A DNA stretch of 63,794 nt from Candidatus Magasanikbacteria bacterium GW2011_GWC2_37_14 (lineage in GTDB: Bacteria; Patescibacteriota; Patescibacteriia; Magasanikbacterales; UBA922), in NCBI GenBank assembly GCA_000990355.1, contig LBSX01000011.1:1-63794 (forward strand). The letters are read 5' to 3'. The notes under the pieces were generated by a model that was given only the letters and a program-made list of their open reading frames with translations, was not told the DNA's origin and searched no databases. Position numbers and translations under genes: made by a program. Shown here one piece after another: positions 1 through 46,644 of the stretch (position 1 is the stretch's first letter; every line of letters starts with the position of its first letter).

Positions 1-46
1 AAAGAGTTTTTGCTTTCTAATAAGTTTGTGGAGTAGAACCGCCCGA

Positions 47-81
47 GCAATACATCACTTAACACCTCGATAAGCGGCTCC
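47..81 (+). repeat. Boundary motif copy a (GCAATACATCACTTAACACCTCGATAAGCGGCTCC)
   Basis: Direct near-repeat of 522-554. Related copies at 1920-1948, 2907-2930, 3841-3865 and 5098-5126 share an ACATC-(A/C)-GATAACA core followed by a short dyad. Confidence 0.5.
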
Positions 82-108
82 AGAAAATTTCCTTAATTAT
101 AGTAATAT

Positions 109-137
109 GGAGTAAAATTTTCTTCCGACCCAAATTT
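109..137 (+). promoter_or_regulatory. Conserved AT-rich leader motif GGAGTAAAATTTTCTTCCGACCCAAATTT (copy 1)
   Basis: Near-identical to 1976-2004 (GGAGTAAAAAATTTTCTCGACCCAAATTT). Both copies are followed by a variable hairpin (136-185 here) and then AAACTTC...ACGTT. A -10-like TAGTAAT lies just upstream. Confidence 0.4.
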
Positions 138-270
138 CAATTCTTTCTTTTCTTTATTAACTGTAATAATGAAGAAAGAATTGAAACTTCGCTTCATCGG
201 GAAACGTTATCGGAAATATTGCTTTTTGACAAAATACTTTTAAGGGACTGTCAACCAAAAAAGGTGCAAT

Positions 271-444
271 ATGCACAGCCGAGCCGCGATGGACCAGCTA
301 CGCGCGTACGAGGAAGCCGTACAGTCGCCCTGCAGATGTCGAATCTGCGGACGAGAGTACTATCCTCAAAGGGGGGACGAACCGTGCCATCACGAGGAAG
401 AGACGGCTGGTGAACAGCCGATCGTCGAGGAGGAACACACATGA
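271..444 (+). CDS. 57-aa Cys/His/Glu-rich micro-ORF in G+C-rich insert (MHSRAAMDQLRAYEEAVQSPCRCRICGREYYPQRGDEPCHHEEETAGEQPIVEEEHT)
   Basis: ATG at 271 is preceded by AAGGTG (4-nt spacer). TGA lies at 442-444 and a 12-bp G+C hairpin follows at 454-483. The ORF is below the 60-aa cut-off of the supplied track. Coding status is unproven. Confidence 0.3.
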   Translation: MHSRAAMDQLRAYEEAVQSPCRCRICGREYYPQRGDEPCHHEEETAGEQPIVEEEHT

Positions 445-453
445 CGTCCCACG

Positions 454-483
454 GGCGAGGCCGACACCACGTCGGCGCTCGCC
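454..483 (+). terminator. G+C hairpin closing the insert (GGCGAGGCCGAC-ACCAC-GTCGGC(G)CTCGCC)
   Basis: 12-bp stem with one bulge, read directly. There is no U-tract, because the right arm of the 21-bp inverted repeat follows immediately. Confidence 0.4.
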
Positions 484-521
484 CAGTCCCTTAAAAGTAT
501 TTTGTAAGAAAAAAAGAAAAA

Positions 522-554
522 GCAATACATCCGATAACAGCCGATATGCGGTTC
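522..554 (+). repeat. Boundary motif copy b (GCAATACATCCGATAACAGCCGATATGCGGTTC)
   Basis: Direct near-repeat of 47-81. Its first half is also part of the right arm of the long inverted repeat. Confidence 0.5.
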
Positions 555-558
555 AAAA

Positions 559-597
559 ATAGTGCCCACTGAATTTTAATGGTGGCACTATTTTTTT
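559..597 (+). terminator. Rho-independent terminator
   Basis: ATAGTGCCCAC...GGTGGCACTAT stem followed by TTTTTTT (591-597). Confidence 0.6.
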
Positions 598-651
598 CAC
601 CCAAATTTTGGCCTTTTCTTTTGGGTGATAAAATGGTAAAATATATGTGCT

Positions 652-1077
652 ATGCAAGTATATAAAACTAAAATAAAGAAATTTCCTGGCACACAGTTTC
701 ACGAAGTACACGGACCGGCTTTCGGCCTTTATACCGAAATCAAAAAGAAAACAAAACGCCGAGTATATGTTAGGTCGGCGTATTTTAATAAAGATAAGAT
801 ATTCCTTGATTTGTTCTGGCATCATCTATTTGAAAAGTCTAACTGGCGGGATAGAGTCAGACGCATGAAGTATTTCGCTTGTGCTATTGAACTCATCCAA
901 AAATCACACTTTGAACCAAAAACAAAGGAAAACCCAAACAAACAAGGCGAAATACTTCATCGCTTTTATGGCACTACTGCAGAGAATGAGTTATTTTATG
1001 TACAAATCAAGGAAGACAAGAAAAAAGATCAAAAGTTTTTGATTTCAGTATTTCCATCAGATGGTGGTATGGAATAA
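652..1077 (+). CDS. Hypothetical protein, 141 aa, basic
   Basis: Clean ORF with host-like AT-rich codon usage. No motif I can assign. An extended -10-like TGGTAAAAT lies just upstream. Confidence 0.6.
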   Translation: MQVYKTKIKKFPGTQFHEVHGPAFGLYTEIKKKTKRRVYVRSAYFNKDKIFLDLFWHHLFEKSNWRDRVRRMKYFACAIELIQKSHFEPKTKENPNKQGEILHRFYGTTAENELFYVQIKEDKKKDQKFLISVFPSDGGME

Positions 1078-1144
1078 AATAAAAAAAGACCCTCCGCTAA
1101 GTGTGGTGTATAAACCACGGCCGAAAGCCTTTTTCTAAATATAT

Positions 1145-1152
1145 TGTATAAT
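1145..1152 (+). promoter_or_regulatory. Extended -10 element TGTATAAT
   Basis: Consensus extended -10, about 70 nt upstream of G+C-rich element copy 1 and 275 nt upstream of the GNAT start. Confidence 0.45.
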
Positions 1153-1220
1153 ATCTTTAAAACAATGTCAAGATGTGTCTGTGGACGAAAAGAAAAGGCC
1201 AAAACTTCGCATATCGGCGT

Positions 1221-1393
1221 ACGTTGTGACGGAATCACTCGCGCGAGCTCGTGTATTTCCGTCACAATGGGGCGCGCTTCCAGCGTTGTTGCGCTCCATC
1301 ACTCGCTCCGCTCGTGACTGGTCGCTACATCCCGCCATCCCATAAGCCTGTGGGCTTCTGGTCTGACGGGACGTCGCATAAGCGCGCCCCATT
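1221..1393 (+). ncRNA. G+C-rich structured element, copy 1 (candidate novel leader RNA or cassette-associated repeat)
   Basis: Identical to 2115-2290 except for a 3-nt indel. Contains a TTGTGACGGAA/TTCCGTCACAA hairpin, a 12-bp long-range helix (1266-1277 with 1382-1393) and a CCATAAGCC-TGTG-GGCTTCTGG hairpin. Strand assignment is tentative. Confidence 0.5.
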
Positions 1394-1426
1394 ATCTGAA
1401 ATTTTTTGTCCCTTAGCGCAACTAAC

Positions 1427-1903
1427 ATGGAAAATATAAAACTGCGACAATTTGAGGAAAAAGACAAAGAGGCTACCTACAATCTCCATATTGAGGGCTT
1501 GAAACAATCCGAAAGTTTTATCGATGATCCAAAAGCCAGAGAACAGCTTGACCAAGACCTGAAAAAGATTCGGGAAGAATATATTGATAGTGACGGAGAA
1601 TTTTTTGTAGCCATAATTGATGATAAAGTAGTAGGCATGGGCGCCTTGAGAAAAGTAGATGACATCACTGCCGAAATAAAAAGAATGAGAGTTAAGCCTG
1701 AGCTTCAGGGCAAGGGAATCGGCGCCTTAATTTTGGATAAGCTAATCGAAAAAGCAAAAGAGTTAGGCTACAAAAAATTGCTTTTGGATACATCGATAAA
1801 ACAAATTGTCGCACAAAGATTATATGAGTCGCGTGGTTTTAAGGAAAGTAGGCGAGGAGAAATATATGGCCAAGAAACTTTATACTACCAACGCGATATT
1901 TAA
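1427..1903 (+). CDS. GNAT family N-acetyltransferase
   Basis: Acetyl-CoA-binding motif region RMRVKPELQGKGIGALILDKLIEKAKELGYKKLLLDT...LYESRGF. The ATG at 1427 is preferred over the non-ATG ORF start at 1406. Confidence 0.85.
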   Translation: MENIKLRQFEEKDKEATYNLHIEGLKQSESFIDDPKAREQLDQDLKKIREEYIDSDGEFFVAIIDDKVVGMGALRKVDDITAEIKRMRVKPELQGKGIGALILDKLIEKAKELGYKKLLLDTSIKQIVAQRLYESRGFKESRRGEIYGQETLYYQRDI

Positions 1904-1919
1904 CACGAAGGGACAAAAA

Positions 1920-1948
1920 ACATCAGATAACAACGCATATCTGGCTCC
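1920..1948 (+). repeat. Boundary motif copy c (ACATCAGATAACAACGCATATCTGGCTCC)
   Basis: Contains the 6-bp dyad CAGATA-N8-TATCTG. Homologous to 47-81, 522-554 and 5098-5126. Confidence 0.5.
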
Positions 1949-1975
1949 AAAATTTTTCATTATTAGAATTAATAG

Positions 1976-2004
1976 GGAGTAAAAAATTTTCTCGACCCAA
2001 ATTT
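1976..2004 (+). promoter_or_regulatory. Conserved AT-rich leader motif (copy 2)
   Basis: GGAGTAAAAAATTTTCTCGACCCAAATTT. Followed by a TTTTCATCCC...GGGATGAAAA stem enclosing about 75 nt, then AACTTCAGATGATGCGTAAACGTT leading into copy 2 of the G+C element. Confidence 0.4.
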
Positions 2005-2114
2005 TCATCCCTTAGTTTTGATGAAAGTTTAGGCGGAGATAATAATACAAAGCATTGTCTGAAAGCAAAAGTTTATACTGCTAAGTCGGGATGAAAACTT
2101 CAGATGATGCGTAA

Positions 2115-2290
2115 ACGTTGTGACGGAATCACTCGCGCGAGCTCGTGTATTTCCGTCACAATGGGGCGCGCTTCCAGCGTTGTTGCGCTCCATCACTCGC
2201 TCCGCTCGTGACTGTGGGTCGCTACATCCCGCCATCCCATAAGCCTGTGGGCTTCTGGTCTGACGGGACGTCGCATAAGCGCGCCCCATT
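2115..2290 (+). ncRNA. G+C-rich structured element, copy 2
   Basis: Same sequence as 1221-1393 plus TGG inserted after ...CGTGACTG. Ends 33 nt before the ATG at 2324, the same spacing as copy 1 to the ATG at 1427. Confidence 0.5.
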
Positions 2291-2323
2291 GGACGAAATT
2301 ATTAAATCAAATTTTTTAATTAT

Positions 2324-2878
2324 ATGAATAACAAAGCTCTGAGAGCCCTTTTCCTGTACAATGGAATATTTGTAGGTGCCGCTGCCATGCTCGGTCCATT
2401 GTATGCTATTTATGTTGTGAAGTTTGTCGACGGTGTGACGGCCGTGAGTATTTCATGGGCAGCGTTTCTTGTTTCAACTTCAATATTCACATACATAGTT
2501 TCCAGGAAAGGTGACGGAATAAAAGAAAAAGAATATTTACTGCTTACTGGATATATTGTTAGAATATTGAGTTGGATTTTGTTGATTTTTGTCCACAATT
2601 TGACGTCATTAGTGTTGGTTCAAATTTTATTAGGTTTTGGTGAATCGCTCGGCACACCTTCTTTCAACGCATTGTTTGCTGATCATCTGGACAAAAATAA
2701 ACACATCAAAGAATATTCCAACTGGTCACTAATCGCAAATTTGACTTCCGCGGCAGGGATACTTGCCGGAGGATCAATTGTTAATAATTTTGGCTTTAAG
2801 GCATTATTCTTGTTTATGTCTGCTCTTTCGCTTGTTGCTTTCTTTGGTATATTATTGAAACCAAGAAAATTATTATAG
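2324..2878 (+). CDS. MFS-like polytopic membrane protein, half-size (184 aa)
   Basis: About six hydrophobic segments and MFS-like loop motifs (VSRKGDGIKEK, GESLGTPSFNALFADH). The length suggests a fragment or a half-transporter. Confidence 0.5.
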   Translation: MNNKALRALFLYNGIFVGAAAMLGPLYAIYVVKFVDGVTAVSISWAAFLVSTSIFTYIVSRKGDGIKEKEYLLLTGYIVRILSWILLIFVHNLTSLVLVQILLGFGESLGTPSFNALFADHLDKNKHIKEYSNWSLIANLTSAAGILAGGSIVNNFGFKALFLFMSALSLVAFFGILLKPRKLL

Positions 2879-2906
2879 CAAAAGGAACAAAAAATTTGAT
2901 TTAATA

Positions 2907-2930
2907 ACATCGCCCAACACTCGATATCCG
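2907..2930 (+). repeat. Boundary motif copy d (ACATCGCCCAACACTCGATATCCG)
   Basis: Aligns with 51-76. CTCGATATC (2919-2927) pairs with GATATCGAG (2980-2988). A partner ACATCAGATATCGAG lies at 2974-2988. Confidence 0.4.
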
Positions 2931-3045
2931 CAAGGGCTAAAGCCACATTTCGATTCCGTTTCACTTCATTGAAACATCAGATATCGAGAAACAATGTACA
3001 ATATTACTCAAGTTTGATAAACGATAAATAATTTAAAGATAAAAT

Positions 3046-3294
3046 ATGAAAGAAATATACACAAGGAGAGATTATTTAGCCCAAGACAGAACCCATCTTG
3101 CGAATGAAAGAACGCTTTTAGCATACTGGAGAACCGCACTTGCATTTTTAGGTTTAGGAGCATTTCTAATCAAATTTGTTCCTTCAGCATATTCTATGAC
3201 GTTAGCTTTAGTTTCAATACTTTTTGGGGTTGTATTATTTATTTATGGTATTGTAAGGTATCTCAAATATAAAGCAAAAATAAATGACAAATAA
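3046..3294 (+). CDS. DUF202 (YidH-like) small membrane protein
   Basis: Signature DRTHLANERTLLAYWRTALAFLGLG followed by two transmembrane helices. Confidence 0.8.
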   Translation: MKEIYTRRDYLAQDRTHLANERTLLAYWRTALAFLGLGAFLIKFVPSAYSMTLALVSILFGVVLFIYGIVRYLKYKAKINDK

Positions 3295-3721
3295 TCAAAC
3301 CCTGCTTCATACTGTCGATTGCTTCGCTCCCTCGTTCGCCTTGCAGTCTCACCACATAACACGGATTTTGAAGTTCGGATTTGCAGTCTTCACCCAAATT
3401 GCTACGCAACTTTTCAAAATCCAATATGTTATTTTACAATATTTAAGTGATAACGTTTCTTCATTTGAAAAAGAAACTCTATACCGAGAAGCTATTAAAT
3501 ATCAATACTGGGTAGCATTTTAGAAAATCTTAACATTTGATAGTTTTATTTTCATAAGTACAGCACTTATTTTACTGGTTGTACCTAAAAAAGAAAAACA
3601 GAAGTGAGTAGCTCCAGGGGACATTCACCCCTTTAATTCCCCTCTGTCCCCTGTCGCGTGATTGAAAAAATTTTGTTTTGTTTGATATAATTCAAAATAT
3701 AGTGAGATAACGAAAGAGAAA

Positions 3722-3870
3722 AGTGTACGTTCCCCCGCTGCGCTCTCATGCACTCCGCTACGCTCCGTGTCATTCGGGTCGGGCAGCAGCGTGTATCTGG
3801 TTCGCTCCCGCTGTCGCTCACCCATATCCGCCCAGGGCGGACATCAGATACACGCGTACGTTGTACGAAA
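3722..3870 (+). repeat. Divergent G+C-rich element related to the 1221/2115 family
   Basis: Shares GTACGTT(G) at both ends and CAGCGTGTATCTGGTTCGCTCC (compare 5110-5130). Contains an embedded ACATCAGATA at 3841 and ends ...ACGAAAT like the other copies. A -10-like GATATAAT lies at about 3682. Confidence 0.4.
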
Positions 3871-4024
3871 TAAATTTTTTATCCTTTTTTATATTTTCCC
3901 GTGATGATTAACGATTGATTGACGATCAAAGGAAGCGAAACAAAATTTTTCCATACGATTTTACAGGGGGTTTAGGTGTTTTTCGCCTGTGCGAACAGGC
4001 AAAAAACCGATTTTTATCTAAAAC

Positions 4025-4079
4025 TTGACCATAATTCCTTAATATGGTATACTGTAAATACTTAACTAAACCATATTAA
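4025..4079 (+). promoter_or_regulatory. Sigma70-type promoter with overlapping 10-bp inverted repeat (putative operator) for the Fic gene
   Basis: TTGACC (4025-4030), a 17-nt spacer, then TATACT (4048-4053). The inverted repeat is TTAATATGGT (4039-4048) and ACCATATTAA (4070-4079). Confidence 0.6.
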
Positions 4080-4089
4080 ACATTTTCTT

Positions 4090-5043
4090 ATGACTTATCT
4101 ATCACCAATTGTAAAAGCTCGTTTGGAAGAGAAACTAAAAAAACTCAACAAACTTCGTCCCCTGCCAAAATCTGCGGTGCAGAAACTTCGAGAAAAATTT
4201 CAAATTGAAATGACTTACAATTCAAACGCAATTGAAGGGAACTCTTTAACTTTAAAAGAGACATTTTTGGTTATTAACGAAGGCTTAACAGTGAAAGGAA
4301 AGCCATTAAAGGATCACTTAGAAGCAAAAGACCACCATGCTGCGTTGGAATATTTATATGACTTAATAGACAAAGACAAAAAACACACTGTTTCTGAAAT
4401 GCTTATAAAAAATTTACATCAAATTATTCTACAGGAAACCGATAAGGAGTGGGCTGGTCGGTACAGAAACGCGAATGTAATTATTGGCGGTGCTGACCAT
4501 ACCCCGCCAGATGCGCTACAAGTACCAAATTTAATGCGAGATTTAATTACTTTACTAAATTCACAAAAAAACAAGCTGAATATTGTTGAACTTTCTGCTT
4601 TACTACATCATAAATTAGTTTACATTCATCCATTTTTTGACGGTAATGGCAGAACAGCACGCTTGACGATGAACTTGTTTTTGATGCAAGCTGGGTATCC
4701 ACTCGTGGTAATTATGAAAACCGACCGGAAAAAATATTATGATGTGCTGGATAAAGCGGATAAAGGCAAATATGAACCGCTGATCAAATTTGTCGCTCAA
4801 TCTATAGAACGCTCGCTTGATATTTATCTCAAAACTTTAACACCTGCCACCACAAAACAAGAAAAATTTGTATCGCTGACTGAAATATCTAAAACCACGC
4901 CTTTTTCCGCCAAATACCTAAACCTGCTTGCAAGACAAGGAAAATTAGAAGCATACAAAGAGGGTCGTGATTGGTTAACTTCCAAAGGAGCAATCGAACG
5001 ATATTTGAAAAACAGAACCAGACAACGAAAAATTTCAAAATAA
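4090..5043 (+). CDS. Fic family protein (AMPylase/adenylyltransferase-type) with C-terminal HTH
   Basis: Canonical Fic motif HPFFDGNGRTARL. The C-terminal segment LTEISKTTPFSAKYLNLLARQGKLEAYKEGRDWLT resembles an excisionase/MerR-like DNA-binding domain. Confidence 0.9.
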   Translation: MTYLSPIVKARLEEKLKKLNKLRPLPKSAVQKLREKFQIEMTYNSNAIEGNSLTLKETFLVINEGLTVKGKPLKDHLEAKDHHAALEYLYDLIDKDKKHTVSEMLIKNLHQIILQETDKEWAGRYRNANVIIGGADHTPPDALQVPNLMRDLITLLNSQKNKLNIVELSALLHHKLVYIHPFFDGNGRTARLTMNLFLMQAGYPLVVIMKTDRKKYYDVLDKADKGKYEPLIKFVAQSIERSLDIYLKTLTPATTKQEKFVSLTEISKTTPFSAKYLNLLARQGKLEAYKEGRDWLTSKGAIERYLKNRTRQRKISK

Positions 5044-5097
5044 AAATGCCCCGATTACATTTTCCTCGCTGTGGCTCGGAATTAAGAATATATTATT

Positions 5098-5175
5098 ACA
5101 TCATATAACAGCGTGTATGCTGTTCCTCTTCGCTACACCCATATACTGACGCACATCGCATAAGCGCGCCCCATT
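5098..5175 (+). repeat. Truncated element: boundary motif fused to the 3' end of the G+C-rich element
   Basis: ACATCATATAACAGCGTGTATGCTGTTCC followed by ...TCGCATAAGCGCGCCCCATT. The last 22 nt are shared with copies 1 and 2. It lacks the 5' partner of the long-range helix and ends 29 nt before the ATG at 5205. Confidence 0.5.
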
Positions 5176-5204
5176 ATACGAAATATACTTAAAAAATAAT
5201 TAAT

Positions 5205-5795
5205 ATGAAAAAAATATTCTTCTTGCTGGCCGCAACAGTAATAATTATCTTGCCGGGATGTGGAATTGTTAGTAAACCAATTGTACAAATTCCCCTTCCC
5301 GCACCAGAATCCGAAAACACTTCAACTATTACACAACCTACACTATCCAACACTTCTGACACCGAATTCCAAAATAATTTAAAAAATAAAACTACCCAAG
5401 AACAAGCGGAATTAACATTAGTTCATTATTTTGATTTATTAAATCAAAAAGAATATGTCAAAACCACCATTTACAACGGCCATGGTTATGAAACTTTACA
5501 AAATTGGAATCCAGATACAAACCCCACCAACTATGCCGAACTAATTAAATATGGTTGTGAAAACAATGGTTGGCAATGTTTAAAAATAAAAAAAATAATT
5601 AGTAAAGAAGAAATCAACCCTAATGAATTTAAATTTGTAGTACAATTTTTAAATAATGACGGCACACTTTTTGAAAGAGGGCCTTGTTGTGGTTCTACGG
5701 AAGCCGAAATGCCTACCAAAAATAAATTTGAATTTATTGTAAAAAAAATAGATAATATTTTTAAAGTTATTACTAGTCCAGTGTATATACCATAA
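5205..5795 (+). CDS. Lipoprotein, function unknown
   Basis: Signal peptide with lipobox-like ILPGC. The mature part has four Cys residues and no recognisable domain. Confidence 0.65.
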   Translation: MKKIFFLLAATVIIILPGCGIVSKPIVQIPLPAPESENTSTITQPTLSNTSDTEFQNNLKNKTTQEQAELTLVHYFDLLNQKEYVKTTIYNGHGYETLQNWNPDTNPTNYAELIKYGCENNGWQCLKIKKIISKEEINPNEFKFVVQFLNNDGTLFERGPCCGSTEAEMPTKNKFEFIVKKIDNIFKVITSPVYIP

Positions 5796-5864
5796 AATCA
5801 CTTGTGGACAAATAAATTTGACCAAAATTTTTTAAACTGTTATTATAACTGTACAATTTATAAA

Positions 5865-6047
5865 TTATCTGTGGAACTGGGGTTTGATTCCCCGACTGTG
5901 CCGCAACGGTAAACCCTTTCAAGGGTAGTCCGATCTTCAGATAAACCCGCCTTGGCTCTTAAAGCTTCGGCGTGTCAAAGCCCGAGCAGGATTCTGTTGA
6001 TTTATAATCAACAAACTAAATTTCTGCCCGTTAGAGGCAGTTTTTTT
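5865..6047 (+). promoter_or_regulatory. Cobalamin (B12) riboswitch with SD-sequestering/terminator hairpin
   Basis: Core GGAACTGGGGTTTGATTCCCCGACTGTGCCGCAACGGTAAA matches the conserved GGGAA..GGTG.AA.TCC....CCGC.AC.GTAA pattern. B12-box-like AGTCCGATCTTCAGATAAACCCGCC is present. Closing helix TTATCTG (5865-5871) pairs with CAGATAA (5938-5944). Hairpin CTGCC-N7-GGCAG plus T7 (6024-6047) covers GAGG. Confidence 0.65.
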
Positions 6048-6587
6048 ATGAAAAATTTTTTAAAAAAATACAAATTCACGCTAATTCTAATATCAATAGC
6101 TTTGATACTATATTTGGGAATTGTTTTGATAATTTCAAACCTGCCTGCCCTGCCTACCGGACAGGTAGGCGGCAGGCAGGTTTCAAATCCTAAAAATCAA
6201 AGGATTGCCACACCTCGCTCGGGCGAGGTTCGCAATGACAGTGTAACCAATAGTCCAACCATCCCCCACCCTGAACCAGAATTTAAAAATCCAATTACTT
6301 TAAAAGTAAATGATGAGGAATACAAAATTGAATTGCAAGACAAGATGACAGTTTATGGTTTAATGCAGGCGCTGTCGGCTAGTTCAATAAAACCATTTAT
6401 CTTTACTACTATAGAATACCCTGGACTAGGACAATTTGTAGACAGTATCAACGACCTAAAAAACGATCGGCAAAATGGAAAATATTGGATTTATTATTTA
6501 AATGGCCAGCCCGCTCAAATCGGCATTTCTAATTACCTTTTAAAATCTAATGATTTAATTGAATGGAAATATGGCACATCATTTTAA
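6048..6587 (+). CDS. DUF4430 (transcobalamin-beta-like) domain protein, membrane-anchored
   Basis: N-terminal transmembrane helix. C-terminus GLGQFVDSINDLKNDRQNGKYWIYYLNGQPAQIGISNYLLKSNDLIEWKY fits the DUF4430 pattern. Start moved to M33 (ATG 6048) after the riboswitch. Residues LPALPTGQVGGRQV...IATPRSGEVRNDS are encoded by palindromic repeats. Confidence 0.7.
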   Translation: MKNFLKKYKFTLILISIALILYLGIVLIISNLPALPTGQVGGRQVSNPKNQRIATPRSGEVRNDSVTNSPTIPHPEPEFKNPITLKVNDEEYKIELQDKMTVYGLMQALSASSIKPFIFTTIEYPGLGQFVDSINDLKNDRQNGKYWIYYLNGQPAQIGISNYLLKSNDLIEWKYGTSF

Positions 6588-6588
6588 C

Positions 6589-8139
6589 ATGAACTCAAAT
6601 AGCCTGCCTACCGGTCAGGCAGGCAAATACCAGATAACATTTTTGATTATTTTAATTTTCTCTTTATTTTTTGTTTTGCCAGTAAAAACGAATGACACAC
6701 CACCAGAAGAAATACCAGTTATACCACCAGTCGAAGAACCAATTATTCCACCTGTAGAAGAACCAGTGGTACCTGCCGAAGAAACAACTTCCACCCCCAC
6801 AATTGAACCAGAGATAATTGAGCAAGATGTTTTAAACAGTGATGCTAGAAAAATCTTAAATTATTTTAAAACAGAACAAGATGAAACTGGGAAAATTATT
6901 AATGCCAATATTTCTGATTGGGCGATGATTTCTTTTGCAGCCAATGAACAATATGGACATGAAATTAAAAAACGTGGTGGAAAATCTTTATTTGAATATA
7001 TTTTAAATTATGATTTTACTGATGCCAGTGATTTGAATGTTTGTGCTACTTATCCACGTCATATTTTGGCACTCCTGGCCGCTGGAGTAGACAAAAATTC
7101 TACTCGCCCCCAAGAATTAAAAGAAAAACTAATTACCACTTGTTATAAAGACAATAATTTTGGCGATAATGGAATTAATGATGATGTTTTCGCTTTATTT
7201 ACTTTGTTGACCATGGACGAAACAAACGACAGTTCAGTAATTACAGACTTAATTAATACTATTCAATCTTGGCAATTAGAAAACGGGGCTTTTGCTTGGC
7301 CAGACTGGATGGACCCAAATATTAAAGTGGCTGGTGACGATATTACTGGAGTAACATTAAACGCTTTAATTTATGCTAAAAACAAAGGAATCAATGTTGA
7401 CCAAAATATAATTAATAATGTTAAAAATTATTTAAAAACTTCACAATTGCCTGATGGTGGCTGGGGTTATTATGGTGCACCAGACGTTTTGACTACCAGT
7501 TGGGTAATGATGGGGCTTAATGCTCTAAGTGAAAGCCAGGCAGAATGGACTGTGGAAGCTACAGGTAAAAACCCTTGGAGTTACTTACACCAAAACCTTA
7601 AAAACGACGGTTTTTACGAACCTTCTTGGTCCCCGGGATCAACTGATTGGTTTGCTACTAAACACGCTGTACCGGCCATTTTGGGGCTTTCCTGGCCAAT
7701 TGTAATGGAACCACGCGAGGAAGAAACTAACATTAGTAATGGACCAAATTATAACTTACCAATTATTGTTAAAAGCGATTTTCCCGAACTTTTTGCTAGT
7801 TCTACCACCACTACTTTAGAAACAACGACTACCACCCTAGAAATAGCTACTTCTACTTTAGAAATAGTTTCTACTACAATTGAAATTGTTACTACCACAC
7901 CAGAAATTACAACTATTGCACTTGATTTAAATAGTTCCACTCTGTCTGTGGTAACTTCTACTTTAGAAAACACAATTAGTACTACTACCAAAAAACAATT
8001 ACCAAAAAATAATTCAAAAACAAATAAAAAAATAATTCAAAAACCACAAAATAGTTTGCAATTAGCCTTGGCTTACTCGTGGTTTGGAAACTATCCTAAA
8101 TACTGGTATAATATTAACCAATTTAAATATAAATTTTAA
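6589..8139 (+). CDS. Secreted/anchored prenyltransferase- or terpene-cyclase-like repeat protein with Thr-rich C-terminal tandem repeats
   Basis: Motifs QLENGAFAWPDW and QLPDGGWGYYG are typical of the alpha/alpha-toroid repeat. The Pro/Glu-rich linker is PPVEEPIIPPVEEPVVP. The C-terminal TTLE/STLE repeats are encoded at about 7790-7990. The start choice (6589 versus 6559) is uncertain. Confidence 0.6.
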   Translation: MNSNSLPTGQAGKYQITFLIILIFSLFFVLPVKTNDTPPEEIPVIPPVEEPIIPPVEEPVVPAEETTSTPTIEPEIIEQDVLNSDARKILNYFKTEQDETGKIINANISDWAMISFAANEQYGHEIKKRGGKSLFEYILNYDFTDASDLNVCATYPRHILALLAAGVDKNSTRPQELKEKLITTCYKDNNFGDNGINDDVFALFTLLTMDETNDSSVITDLINTIQSWQLENGAFAWPDWMDPNIKVAGDDITGVTLNALIYAKNKGINVDQNIINNVKNYLKTSQLPDGGWGYYGAPDVLTTSWVMMGLNALSESQAEWTVEATGKNPWSYLHQNLKNDGFYEPSWSPGSTDWFATKHAVPAILGLSWPIVMEPREEETNISNGPNYNLPIIVKSDFPELFASSTTTTLETTTTTLEIATSTLEIVSTTIEIVTTTPEITTIALDLNSSTLSVVTSTLENTISTTTKKQLPKNNSKTNKKIIQKPQNSLQLALAYSWFGNYPKYWYNINQFKYKF

Positions 8140-8140
8140 T

Positions 8141-8662
8141 ATGAAAAAATACTTAATTCCTGTTTTATTAATCGTTTTGGGTTTTTCTGCTCGACTACTT
8201 CCTCATCCAGCAAATTTTGCCCCAATTGGCGCCATTGCTTTATTTGGCGCTCTTTATTTGCCAAAAAAATATGCTTTGATTGTACCAATTATCGCCATGT
8301 TCATTTCGGATATTTTTATTGGCTTTTATTCTTGGCAAATAATGCTAGCAGTTTACACTAGTTTTGTTTTAATGGGTGTAATTGGTTTGCTAGTAAGAAA
8401 CAAAAAATCATTTTCAACAATACTTGGTGGAACTTTACTTGGTTCTGTTTTATTTTTCTTAATAACTAACTTTGCAGTTTGGGCTTTTGGTACAATGTAT
8501 GCTCATAATTTTTCTGGTTTAATCCAAAGTTATACCATGGCCATTCCTTTTTTTAAAAACAGTTTATTAGGTGATATTTTTTATGTCACAATTTTGGTTG
8601 GCAGTTATGAACTCCTTAATTTGACAAGCAAATTTAAAAATAGTATTCTTCAAAAGGTATAA
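8141..8662 (+). CDS. Small polytopic membrane protein, candidate substrate-capture (ECF S-component-like) transporter
   Basis: About six transmembrane segments and the motif LLPHPANFAPIGAIALFGALYL. Third gene behind the B12 riboswitch. The family call is inferred from context. Confidence 0.45.
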   Translation: MKKYLIPVLLIVLGFSARLLPHPANFAPIGAIALFGALYLPKKYALIVPIIAMFISDIFIGFYSWQIMLAVYTSFVLMGVIGLLVRNKKSFSTILGGTLLGSVLFFLITNFAVWAFGTMYAHNFSGLIQSYTMAIPFFKNSLLGDIFYVTILVGSYELLNLTSKFKNSILQKV

Positions 8663-8685
8663 CATCTTCCCTTTGGGAGGTTTCC

Positions 8686-9024
8686 ATGGAGTTCGTAGCA
8701 ACTCTCAGATGGGGCACGGATAGGCTGACCGTCGAGGTTGACCACACCGACGACCTTGGTGGTCTGACGAAGGAGCAACTCTGCCAGGCGATCGAAAAGG
8801 CGGCGGCCAATTTTTTCACCGCGAATGACCAGTACCCGCTGTTCATCAAGCGCCAGAAGGATGGCACGCTCAAGTACCCGGCAATCTATACGCCGGTACT
8901 GTTCGTCGAAGCTCTCGAAGCGCTCTTCTCGCGCAGCCTCTCGGAGCAAATCCCGCTCAAGCCCCAAGCCGACCCTGACAGCCCGCGTGCGCATGATTGC
9001 TTCCTCGCCGAAGCCAGCGGCTAA
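8686..9024 (+). CDS. Orphan 112-aa protein encoded in a G+C-rich island
   Basis: GGGAGG lies 6 nt before the ATG. 36/60 G+C at 8701-8760 versus about 32% in the host. A hairpin follows at 9041-9064. No recognisable domain. Confidence 0.55.
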   Translation: MEFVATLRWGTDRLTVEVDHTDDLGGLTKEQLCQAIEKAAANFFTANDQYPLFIKRQKDGTLKYPAIYTPVLFVEALEALFSRSLSEQIPLKPQADPDSPRAHDCFLAEASG

Positions 9025-9040
9025 CTCCGCCCTGTCGACC

Positions 9041-9064
9041 CCTCCCGACCAGTTTGTCGGGAGG
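9041..9064 (+). terminator. G+C hairpin after the island ORF (CCTCCCGAC-CAGTTT-GTCGGGAGG)
   Basis: Perfect 9-bp stem with no strong U-tract. The host AAAAACACCCC...GGGGTGTTTTT hairpin (9086-9153) follows. Confidence 0.45.
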
Positions 9065-9163
9065 CTGTGTGACTAAAGTTATACCAAAAACACCCCGTCC
9101 CTCGTTTACTTCTCAATAGCTGGGAATTAAACCAAGGAGTTTGGGGTGTTTTTTATTTTTATA

Positions 9164-10810: not shown

Positions 10811-10860
10811 AAGATTTAATTTATAAAAACGAGAATATTATAACACAAATTATTTAAGTA

Positions 10861-11500
10861 AACAACCACCGGCCTTAGGGCCGGTGGCTTTGTTTTTGCC
10901 GGCTTAATCGCCGGCAGGGTGGCGTTTGCTTTAGTTAAGGATTTTGTCGAAGAGAGAGGGTTGTTCTACTTCGTTGTGATGTTCTTGGTGAGTGACGTAA
11001 CGACGGATGACATACTCATCAATGCCAATTGTTGAAACAAAGTAACCTCTAGCCCATAATGATTCTTTCTCGTACAACCCATGTTTACGTTTAATCTTTT
11101 TCTTAAGCCAGGCTGAGGATTTACCTTTGATAATTTGCATGGTATACGAGATTGAATCGCGTGGTGTGGTTAAGAGACACATGTGTATATGGTCTTCTTG
11201 AATATTAAGCTCAATTATCTCCCAATGTTTCCATTTGCAAATTGACTCAAATATTCTTCGTAGTTCTTGTTTGATCTTCTCTGCCCCCAATACTTTACCA
11301 CGGTATTTAGGTGTCCACACTAGATGGTACTTTAAATCGTAAAAACAATGTGATAATGTACGGATAGTACGTTTGTGTTGTTTCATAGACGTATGAATTG
11401 TTAGTTACTAAAGCCACCCTGCCGGGTGGCTTTAGTATACGACGTTGTCTTCAAACGTACACCCCAGCTACGCTGGGGGTTTTTAGGATAATAAAAAACC
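10861..11500 (-). mobile_element. IS200/IS605-family element carrying tnpA only
   Basis: The Y1 transposase ORF is flanked by subterminal hairpins: CCACCGGCC..GGCCGGTGG and GCCGGC..GCCGGC at 10866-10915, and AAAGCCACCC..GGGTGGCTTT and CCCCAGC..GCTGGGG at 11410-11480. Exact ends are not determined. Confidence 0.7.
10931..11386 (-). CDS. tnpA: IS200/IS605 family Y1 (HUH) transposase TnpA
   Basis: Motifs YHLVWTPKYR, the HUH motif HIHM in EDHIHMCLL, and a catalytic Tyr region YVIRRYVTHQE. Typical size of 151 aa. Confidence 0.9.
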   Translation of the reverse strand: MKQHKRTIRTLSHCFYDLKYHLVWTPKYRGKVLGAEKIKQELRRIFESICKWKHWEIIELNIQEDHIHMCLLTTPRDSISYTMQIIKGKSSAWLKKKIKRKHGLYEKESLWARGYFVSTIGIDEYVIRRYVTHQEHHNEVEQPSLFDKILN

Positions 11501-45723: not shown

Positions 45724-46041
45724 ACTTTTCCCCATTTTTCCCCACGTACTACCATTATAATCCACTTGGCTAGATAAAGCAAGGGTTTTATCCCACTTTA
45801 TCCACAGCGTAAAAGGCCTACGGCCTTACGCTACAGGCACCCTTCCTCCCCCTGCCCGAGATGGAGGTTAGGAGGGCGTGGGAGAAACCTCTTAAGTCTT
45901 TATCAATTGCCTATCCGGGCAAAATGAATATTAATAGTTTAGCGTAAAAAAATTATAAGGCGTTGACAAACCGAACAAAACAGCGTAGTGTATTTAGCAG
46001 TAGTCGACCGCCACCAAAAACAACGCAAGCCGGGGGATTCC

Positions 46042-46383
46042 ATGACAAAGCTGATGCTGGACCTGATTGCCCTGTTCGTACTGCTCCTGAAGGGCGAGGC
46101 CGACCGCGACGCGTTCGACGACAAGCTCAACGAGTACTTCCTGGCCAAGGCCGAGGCCGATGGCGCCACCGCGGGCCACACCGAGACACTGGAAGTGCCC
46201 GCCGCGCCGACCCCGGCCAACCTGACCGCCGACGGCATGGACGCGCCGGTCGAAGCCACCGACGCGCCCGAGGCCGAAGCCGCCGAAGCCGAAGTGCCCG
46301 TCGTGCTCGACGAAGCGCCCGCCGAGGTCGCCGCCGAAGAAGCGCCCGTCGCCGAGGCCACCGAGGCCACCGTCGTCGCGTAG
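46042..46383 (+). CDS. Orphan 113-aa protein with N-terminal hydrophobic helix and Ala/Glu/Pro-rich low-complexity tail, in a G+C-rich island
   Basis: TTGACA-17 nt-TAGTGT at 45965-45993 and GGGGGA 6 nt before the ATG at 46042. 44/60 G+C at 46141-46200. Hairpin GCCC-TTCC-GGGC directly after the stop. The track ORF starts earlier (45988). Confidence 0.5.
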   Translation: MTKLMLDLIALFVLLLKGEADRDAFDDKLNEYFLAKAEADGATAGHTETLEVPAAPTPANLTADGMDAPVEATDAPEAEAAEAEVPVVLDEAPAEVAAEEAPVAEATEATVVA

Positions 46384-46644
46384 GCCCTTCCGGGCTGAAG
46401 GATCACCAACCCTCAGCTGAGTGGCGATCCAACGCGACATGTTCTGACTACACTCGTAAATGAAGGATACTTGGCGGTTGACTGAATTTACGAGCCCAAA
46501 TGGGGGGATGGAGGGAGACGATGAACCGGAGGGTTCAACGTCATGTTCGAGGCAGATGTTCGTCGTCTGTCTCCGTTCCAGTGAATATTTTTAAAAAGTA
46601 TTTAGTGGAAAACAAAAAATCTACCAACTAGGTAGATTTTTTGT

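Follow-up and report, generated by a model that had tools for sequence, protein, structure and literature searches.

We analyzed a 63,794-nt stretch of contig LBSX01000011.1 (here called the window) of Candidatus Magasanikbacteria bacterium GW2011_GWC2_37_14, a member of the candidate phyla radiation (CPR), and focused on a short G+C-rich element that is present in two near-identical copies and carries no open reading frame (ORF). With moderate confidence, we interpret the element as a gene-less cassette of an integron-like array that is associated with an Xer-type recombinase, a cassette that acts as folded bottom-strand DNA (the strand complementary to the cassette ORFs) and is probably selfish.

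Boundaries and fold of the element

A repeat search of the window placed the near-identical copies at 1221-1393 and 2115-2290, as an earlier reading of the sequence alone (the sequence-only reading) had reported, and the description of both as strongly G+C-rich islands held (56-58% G+C versus 36% for the window). Positions 1221-1320 equal 2115-2214 over 100 nt without a mismatch, and the copies are again identical from 1320/2217 through ...CCCCATT, so that the sole difference is 3 nt (TGG) at the join. This had been taken for a 3-nt indel but is the difference between two deletion end points. The reference for this is an independent 82-kb assembly of the same locus from groundwater (L001, in which window position 1 corresponds to position 8542), which was retrieved with the GNAT protein; its host bears out the mention of Patescibacteria in the sequence-only reading. 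The full element is 204 nt in every complete copy (L001, L002, L003, L004, and L112), and the window copies of 171 and 174 nt are internal deletions of 33 and 30 nt, respectively (window 1320 and 2214-2217 versus L001 9861-9893 and 10788-10816). The deletions remove the 3' strand of helix P2. They are either a real variant or an assembly artifact at a four-fold repeat.

The element proper starts at GTTGTG (1223 and 2117), 2 nt after the start of the repeat, and in L001, each of the four copies has ...AC|GTTGTG at its left boundary and CCCCA|TT at its right boundary, where the bar marks the crossover. The TTANNYG that follows the element is part of the downstream cassette, because it matches that cassette's own right end; the ...YGAAAT ending that the sequence-only reading had assigned to all copies is likewise part of the next cassette and not of the element. 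With crossover positions placed from unit boundaries, the element spans exactly from one inferred crossover point to the next. Each copy lies 33 nt before an ATG (1427 and 2324), as proposed, and this spacing is constant because cassette 5' ends are short. Two further relatives had been suggested. The 3'-terminal 19-mer CGCATAAGCGCGCCCCATT does recur at 5157-5175 (3 matches versus 0.02 expected by chance). The supposed truncated relative at 5098-5175 is a fusion in which an ordinary site contributes the 5' half and the element its 3' end. The supposed diverged relative at 3722-3870 is also G+C-rich and ORF-less but is a unit of a different kind, and a segment in the array of another genome is 84% identical to it.

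The element is organized as a canonical left end (e.g., GTTGTGCAAAAT), a noncoding payload of ∼85 nt, a canonical right end (ACATCGCACAAC), and the 3' half of a site (...ACTTC-GGATATGCCGC...CCCA|TT). This 3' half was detected as an ordinary site by our site search, and one locus (L077) has an ordinary site that is nearly identical to it.

The minimum free energy fold contains the three features proposed from the sequence alone, namely, a TTGTGACGGAA/TTCCGTCACAA hairpin, a 12-bp long-range helix, and a CCATAAGCC/GGCTTCTGG hairpin. Compared with shuffled sequences, the copy folds strongly on both strands (plus strand, -83.4 kcal/mol, z = -5.4; minus strand, -97.3 kcal/mol, z = -8.65). Three helices involve the payload: H1 joins it to the element's own left end, P2 to the right end plus spacer, and P1 to the 3' spacer. 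The unit therefore folds as a compact hairpin plus a three-way junction. We rejected a full-length structure built on a MAFFT alignment, which mis-registered the element center and the stems of ordinary sites; the structural analysis relied on folding each sequence independently, on comparing own with cross pairing, and on modeling the 5' module. H1 and the three-way junction were present in all 10 family members, each folded independently. Within H1, 92% of cells were paired and 7 of the 12 pairs showed compensatory changes; covariation was 0.381, compared with 0.110 after shuffling (0 of 500), and slid controls did not exceed 0.107. Compensatory pairs were also found in P1, the sequence of which varies across the family from GGGGCGCGC/GCGCGCCCC to GTGTGTGCTT/AAGCACACAC, and the left end covaries with the internal right end (GTTGTGC/GCACAAC, GTTATGC/GCATAAC, and GTTTGCC/GGCCAAC).

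The recombinase-adjacent array and its cassettes

The element copies belong to a longer array that begins beside a tyrosine recombinase gene (281 aa; L001 5103-5948, minus strand) upstream of the window. The recombinase gene is divergent from a plus-strand run of accessory genes (DsrE, SHOCT, GDSL lipase, a 57-aa ORF, a 141-aa ORF, GNAT, MFS-like, DUF202, Fic, and lipoprotein). Two further copies of the element lie upstream of the window, one of them starting 109 nt from the recombinase start codon. The best match of the recombinase among solved structures was the Vibrio integron integrase IntI4 (2a3v; 1.8e-51), with an alignment in two stretches between which recombinase residues 184-198 (15 aa) stand against IntI4 residues 187-241 (55 aa). 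Judged by this alignment, the gap is the IntI-specific I2 region, which is absent from the recombinase. The integron integrase model TIGR02249 likewise matched in two stretches and below its cutoff (243 bits; cutoff, 265), and NF040815 (XerA, "recombinase/integron integrase") matched above its own (253 bits; cutoff, 220). Homologs are all ∼273 aa, and the recombinase is 65 to 87% identical across Magasanikbacteria. A survey of tyrosine recombinases places candidate-phyla enzymes in an Xer-related "Cand" group and does not mention arrays.

We found a dif-like core (...AGTTCGCATATAAC-TA|GTTANNCGAAAT) at a distance of ∼108 nt from the start codon of the recombinase gene, and this junction is conserved, at ∼101 to 129 nt, among loci with recombinases of 47 to 100% identity. 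The dif site of Escherichia coli reads GGTGCGCATAA-TGTATA-TTATGTTAAAT. The recombinase-proximal junction resembles this site in both arms and reads like a core of the dif type (11-6-11), with its right arm contributed by the first cassette. No second tyrosine recombinase was found in the 72 kb formed by the L001 left flank and the window. To the right of the array, the GC skew is strongly negative for 57 kb (-0.1 to -0.25), and it is ∼0 within the array and in the 8.5-kb flank to its left; a skew switch, as at a replication terminus and hence at dif, is possible near the array.

The same layout of recombinase and divergent array, with the same end motifs, was found in L007 to L010 and in many other loci. 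L001 and L007 have common flanks (FolD, glycosyltransferase, Dus, and recombinase on one side and DUF4430 on the other), and no array DNA shared between the two was found. A sequence resembling an adenosylcobalamin (B12) riboswitch lies just past the last cassette at 5852-5993 on the plus strand, upstream of the DUF4430 and DUF6580 genes (full-length match, 43.7 bits; gathering threshold, 50; E = 9.5e-6), and marks the distal edge of the array; the L007 array also ends at a DUF4430 gene.

We read the grammar of the cassettes from the inverted repeats in the window together with the four related loci L007 to L010. According to a repeat finder, inverted repeats bracket single genes in the window (206-250/484-538, 1392-1414/1908-1930, and 2289-2317/2889-2917); the sequence-only reading mentioned neither these arms nor the recombinase, which lies outside the window. 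A cassette starts at [G/A]|TT with TTANNYGAAAT, followed by a cassette-specific arm, and ends with the complementary arm and ACATCRNNTAAC, after which comes a hairpin site. The two arms of a cassette proved complementary in at least 17 cassettes representing 10 genomes: over 22 to 36 nt, counted exactly from the crossover TT, the left arm is the reverse complement of the cassette's own right arm, and the sole invariant difference between the arms is GAAAT versus GATGT. The order of parts in a hairpin site is stem S1, side hairpin, CCAAAT, inner stem and apical loop, ACTTC, return of S1, (A/T)AC, and the next G|TT. Searching by motif and stem, we found 32 such sites on the array strand upstream of the recombinase and 2 on the opposite strand, compared with 7 and 6 on the far side of the recombinase. 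When sites were defined by end motifs only, the stems of 16 of the 30 sites paired with their own partners in perfect runs of 7 to 13 bp of varied sequence, whereas the median for cross-pairs was 4. The 5' arm of ordinary sites carries a side hairpin of 20 to 50 nt between the stem and CCAAAT. Because this hairpin splits the two, the conserved motifs meet the contiguous 3' arm only when the site is folded. In bottom-strand folds of eight sites, the stems were essentially perfect and a one-sided bulge of 2 to 4 nt lay between the boxes next to the crossover; recurrent extrahelical bases were not seen in these eight folds. The Fic ORF and a module composed of a right arm plus its site recur in other arrays with different neighbors, and the homology of the latter module stops at the crossover in L001.

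Similar sites (ACTTCNNNTAAC ... AAAC|GTTAGNCGA(C/A)AT) were present in two MAGs (metagenome-assembled genomes) labeled Bacillota/Clostridia (L087 12447-12552 and 16025-16167; L068 11694-11849). Their recombinases are 42 to 43% identical to the one described here and share a strand with the sites, which are located downstream. Possibly, the system is not confined to CPR or its layout differs in these MAGs.

The bottom strand was the more stable one in all 10 elements, by 5 to 10.7 kcal/mol with DNA parameters; of 11 ordinary sites, 10 showed the same bias and the remaining one was a tie. The sequence of the apical loops on the bottom strand is GCGNAGC; d(GCGAAGC) and variants of it with GNA form hyperstable DNA mini-hairpins. 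In the array, this motif occurs 47 times on the bottom strand versus 7 times on the top strand; the corresponding counts in a larger control flank are 30 and 21. The strand asymmetry, the mini-hairpin motif, and the alignment of conserved motifs upon folding favor folded bottom-strand single-stranded DNA over an RNA leader on the sense strand.

Homologs of the element exist outside this locus. Relatives were found in L014 (recombinase, 67% identical), in the Falkowbacteria locus L049 (48% identical), and on six metagenome contigs. A covariance model of the 5' module, searched over 1.07 Mb from 91 sources, gave 31 strong hits in 17 loci in addition to the two window copies, with Magasanikbacteria, Falkowbacteria, and other CPR MAGs as hosts. 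Wherever the recombinase was present, every strong hit was on the array strand and upstream of the recombinase; the search gave nothing else but two weak reverse-strand echoes of the same hairpins. Where a locus contained both recombinase and element, the first unit after the junction was the element in 12 of 13 cases (exception, L095), and the 5' end of these first-position copies was 102 to 145 nt from the recombinase start codon. Copies are identical or nearly so within a genome and different between genomes. In L001, they alternate with ORF cassettes.

The contigs also give some view of array variation. L112 (sample ERZ27254739; 38.9-kb contig, positions 1-8954) has the junction, one copy of the element, and directly after it the MFS cassette; it lacks 4.43 kb of L001, equivalent to five ORF-bearing units and three copies of the element. 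Look-ups with exact proteins returned contigs that were co-linear or broken inside repeats and gave no direct evidence of mobility. Two contigs, L011 (...GGTA|GTTA) and L019 (...AGGA|GTT), end 3 to 4 nt past the crossover. Contig ends are expected at the start of an array because the sequence there turns repeated or strain variable, and with such a systematic assembly break, arrays are probably underrepresented in binned genomes. Five more contigs (L012, L014, L029, L041, and L047) also stop near the crossover by the recombinase gene or in the first copy.

Proposed mechanism, alternatives, and known systems

The position of the element between two crossover points, in an array adjacent to a recombinase and with the same grammar of ends and sites as its neighbors, bears out one of the roles that the sequence-only reading had considered, that of a cassette-associated recombination structure. 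Another, a selfish structured repeat, is compatible with the identical copies within a genome, the several copies per array, and the first position. In the mechanism that we propose, the substrate would be folded bottom-strand single-stranded DNA, as it is for the attC sites of integrons and for the attachment site of CTX phage. The recombinase would act on the sites and swap one strand at G|TT, with replication resolving the junction. The very stable, self-contained fold of the element would make its recombination frequent, and by excision and reinsertion at the recombinase-proximal site the element would spread and multiply as a selfish mini-cassette. We favor a hyperactive selfish mini-cassette because, if new units enter at the proximal end as they do in integrons, the most frequently recombining unit would usually come first and accumulate copies.

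Several observations weigh against this interpretation. No recombination event was observed, and recombination is something that we infer. The recombinase lacks the I2 helix that integron integrases need for folded attC, and because both I2 and recurrent extrahelical bases are absent, single-strand recombination is an analogy with CTX phage and Xer. The strand asymmetry in folding energy is indirect evidence. The high conservation of the recombinase would be expected of a housekeeping Xer protein. The short array of L112 is ambiguous because its breakpoints lie inside identical copies, where excision, homologous recombination, and an assembler path are indistinguishable. Finally, the predominance of the element at the first position could reflect a function in the platform and not selfish reinsertion.

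One alternative, which we consider unlikely, is a duplex Xer/dif module in which dif-like sites alternate in orientation, as in the pdif modules of Acinetobacter, the element is a tiny module between two such sites, conventional Xer recombination involves two strands, and the hairpins are a by-product of the inverted sites. It would account for an Xer-like recombinase without I2, for the dif-like appearance of the junction and of the 3' arms of sites (11-nt arms around a short center, compared with the E. coli site given above), and for the inverted arm motifs that flank genes. It would also fit the 141-aa ORF (652-1077), which lies whole inside the site at 527-1222, between inner arms at 600-622/1188-1209 with the motifs CCCAAAT/AAACTTCG, as if both kinds of interval carried cargo. 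This ORF had no Pfam match, and its position suggests that cargo can enter on the inner (L-box) as well as the outer side of a site. However, the side hairpin lets the conserved motifs meet only in the folded form, 20 of 21 sites fold more stably on the bottom strand (the other is the tie), and the mini-hairpin motif is enriched on that strand only. Moreover, both the 22- to 36-nt cassette arms and the site stems covary, and duplex recognition needs neither.

The main alternative to selfish reinsertion, which we also consider unlikely, is that the element is a platform component kept at the proximal site, where it would shape or protect the dif-like site, insulate divergent promoters, or serve as a highly efficient partner site for the excision and shuffling of adjacent cassettes. 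Its place in the first position and its alternation with ORF cassettes in L001 would suit such a role, as would the persistence of the family, with compensatory changes, across recombinases only 47 to 48% identical and the presence of promoter-like hexamers in both directions within the ∼110 nt between recombinase start and element. Yet those promoter matches are weak consensus hits, proximal insertion alone would place the most active cassette first, and many related arrays have no copy and start with an ordinary cassette (L007, L008, L009, L013, L015, L018, L020, L022, and others).

A structured RNA, either a cis leader of the downstream ORF or a small RNA from the opposite strand, is very improbable in our judgment. 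The strong nonrandom fold, the covarying helices, and the location of two copies 33 nt before ORFs speak for it, and a cis-regulatory leader was among the roles proposed in the sequence-only reading. The view taken there that the element matches no known RNA class was upheld: an Rfam scan of the whole window at gathering thresholds gave one tRNA only, and a scan of 1-6000 at E ≤ 10 gave chance-level matches on the element (sX9, 20.6 bits versus a gathering threshold of 44). The leader itself was not supported: the sense strand folds less stably than its complement in each of the 10 members, and no Rfam family was matched even at the relaxed threshold. In addition, the ends and 3' half of the element are common to the inter-cassette sites, crossover points bound it, and the downstream genes are unrelated, with the first-position copy preceding whichever cassette is there. 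A small RNA in antisense would lack a consistent promoter, as the cassette upstream of it varies. We also considered and rejected the template and variable repeats of a diversity-generating retroelement, a retron, a group II intron fragment, and a hammerhead-like core, given that the copies are identical and not A-mutated, that no reverse transcriptase lies nearby, that the size is too small, and that core motifs are incomplete.

A small protein gene on the bottom strand or an assembly artifact is barely credible, and we regard both as refuted: although a frame from the ATG in CCCCAT is open in L001, L014, and L095, gene callers report an ORF of 78 to 86 aa, and the 3-nt difference in the window preserves the frame, this frame has 1 to 4 stops in 6 of 10 members and no frame is conserved, and the identical element is present in independent assemblies from several samples.

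Among known systems, integrons are similar in many respects. They too combine a tyrosine recombinase divergent from same-strand, single-gene accessory cassettes with a conserved recombinase-proximal site, boundaries at [G/A]|TT with ...AAC and GTT... boxes, and imperfect palindromic sites in which stems covary while the sequence varies and the strand complementary to the ORFs folds better. Related genomes have common flanks and different cassettes, and the repeated, near-identical structured units were first noticed as intergenic repeats. Sedentary chromosomal integrons have homogeneous attC families (e.g., the Vibrio cholerae repeats), and ORF-less cassettes are known. In contrast, the recombinase described here lacks I2 and stays below the TIGR02249 cutoff, and the sites have a one-sided 2- to 4-nt bulge and not the recurrent extrahelical bases or unpaired spacer of attC. 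The boxes (TTANNYGAAAT / ACATCRNNTAAC) exceed those of integrons in length and show an invariant 2-nt asymmetry, cassettes carry complementary arms of 22 to 36 nt beyond the boxes, and the host is a small-genome CPR bacterium. Because two defining features of integrons, the I2 domain and extrahelical bases, are absent, we do not classify the system as an integron. We found no description of integron-like arrays in CPR/Patescibacteria in the open-access full-text literature, which is not proof of absence.

The array also resembles the CTX phage and other integrative mobile elements exploiting Xer (IMEX) in having an Xer-type recombinase without I2 and a dif-like target, and successive integrations of such elements at one site would build a tandem array. 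The CTX hairpin has no extrahelical bases, mimics duplex DNA, and is used by Xer recombinases without I2 (Escudero et al. 2016, PMC4792948); the hairpin sites here also mimic a duplex without extrahelical bases. Unlike phages or islands, however, the units here are ∼10 or more single-gene cassettes and gene-less units, the target adjoins the recombinase gene, and the sites form a conserved family with its own grammar. Acinetobacter pdif modules likewise have cargo between inverted Xer-type arms and alternating intervals of which either kind carries cargo, but they are found on plasmids, whereas the array here is chromosomal, unidirectional, and beside the recombinase gene. Its sites fold as hairpins whose stems covary and whose two strands are asymmetric; pdif mobility is thought to be duplex based.

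Short G+C-rich intergenic hairpin repeats are also typical of repetitive extragenic palindromic (REP) sequences and bacterial interspersed mosaic elements (BIME), of REPIN-RAYT systems, and of IS200/IS605 ends, and a Y1 transposase gene is present in the window. We rejected a link to IS200/IS605 or REP/REPIN, as no repeat joins the element to 10855-11500 and all 31 model hits are in arrays. Unlike REP or IS200-type repeats, the element occurs in arrays only, on one strand, and at crossover points.

Integrons are the main gene-capture device of bacteria, and their origin from Xer-type recombinases is an open question. The I2 helix and attC extrahelical bases are held to have coevolved, a "chicken-and-egg" problem for the origin of integrons (Escudero et al. 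2016, PMC4792948). We propose, as a tentative possibility, that CPR bacteria carry a natural "proto-integron" in which an I2-less Xer-type recombinase captures and stockpiles single-gene cassettes through folded single-stranded hairpin sites without extrahelical bases and a gene-less mini-cassette parasitizes or services the platform. This recombinase is possibly the cell's own chromosome dimer resolvase, acting at the dif-like site beside its gene. If the proposal is true, hairpin cassettes and arrays can exist before I2, which bears on the origin of integrons, and integron-type gene capture reaches the small-genome CPR radiation; if active, the system would be a living intermediate or an independent solution. 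Standard tools cannot call an integron in CPR arrays because they require the I2 profile. The compact gene-less element, which is nearly always found at the insertion site, offers a ready substrate for tests in a heterologous host. Further, G+C-rich, "structured RNA-like" islands upstream of CPR accessory genes should be checked for cassette grammar before they are called riboregulators.

Array units and other features of the window

The units of the array that lie in the window are listed in the table.

Table. Array units, sites, and helices in the window (for copy 1, the minus sign marks the better-folding strand)
Feature	Position	Strand	Details
Attachment (attC-like) site, ordinary, closing the lipase cassette	52..205	-	Right-end box ACATCACTTAAC 52-63; S1 65-76/190-201
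Inner stem of the lipase-cassette site	128-151/170-195		CCCAAAT/AAACTTCG; ends ...GGGAAAC before G|TT at 206
57-aa ORF cassette	206..538	+	ORF 271-444, ∼60% G+C; own arms 206-250/484-538
Ends of the 57-aa ORF cassette			Left GTTATCGGAAAT; right ACATCCGATAAC
attC-like site of the previous cassette	527..1222	-	S1 540-550/1208-1218
ORF-less G+C-rich cassette, copy 1	1223..1391	-	G|TT crossover 1223/1224; ends ...CCCCA at 1391
Copy 1 helices			H1 1224-1234/1257-1267; P1 1269-1277/1382-1390; P2 5' strand 1282-1293, partner deleted in the window
Copy 1 attC-like 3' arm	1375-1384		CGCATAAGCG
GNAT cassette	1391..2116	+	Left arm 1391-1414; ORF 1427-1903; right arm 1908-1931 (ACATCAGATAAC 1920-1931)
attC-like site of the GNAT cassette	1920-2116		S1 1933-1943/2101-2112
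ORF-less G+C-rich cassette, copy 2	2117..2288	-	H1 2118-2128/2151-2161; P1 2163-2171/2279-2287
MFS-like cassette	2288..2996	+	Left arm 2288-2317; ORF 2324-2878; right arm 2889-2918
attC-like site of the MFS-like cassette	2907 to ∼2996		S1 2920-2928/2980-2988
Second kind of ORF-less G+C-rich unit	3727..3859	-	S1 3789-3800/3845-3855; ordinary attC-like 3' half, then GTAC|GTTGTACGAAAT
Fic cassette	3860..5109	+	Left end GTTGTACGAAAT 3860-3871; ORF 4090-5043; right end ACATCATATAAC 5098-5109
Hybrid site at the distal array end	5098..5173	-	Ordinary 5' half 5098-5122 fused to the last ∼19 nt of the element, 5155-5173
Sequence after the hybrid site	5174-5184		TTATACGAAAT, then the lipoprotein ORF

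The Fic cassette has its own strong sigma-70-like promoter (TTGACC-17-TATACT, 4025-4053) ∼40 nt before the ORF, whereas leaders are short in the other cassettes. An ORF in the L009 array is 84% identical to the Fic ORF but has different flanks.

Three ORFs of foreign composition (58 to 67% G+C in a 36% genome) lie at 271-444, 8686-9024 (island, 8663-9109), and 45988-46383. The first encodes a Cys-rich product, and the last, within an island of 67% G+C (45995-46463), encodes an Ala/Glu-rich, low-complexity protein. Neither of the two that were scanned (all but 45988-46383) had a Pfam match. These high-G+C ORFs may be recent acquisitions from high-G+C donors.

The IS200/IS605-type Y1 transposase gene (10931-11386, minus strand) is located between pyrG and the L9 gene and is flanked by G+C-rich hairpins (10867-10916 and 11411-11478). 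An ORF at 6559-8139 encodes a secreted-looking product of 526 aa, in which four to five tandem 21-nt repeats (7811-7915) give a Thr-rich (TTTLE-like) stretch near the C terminus.

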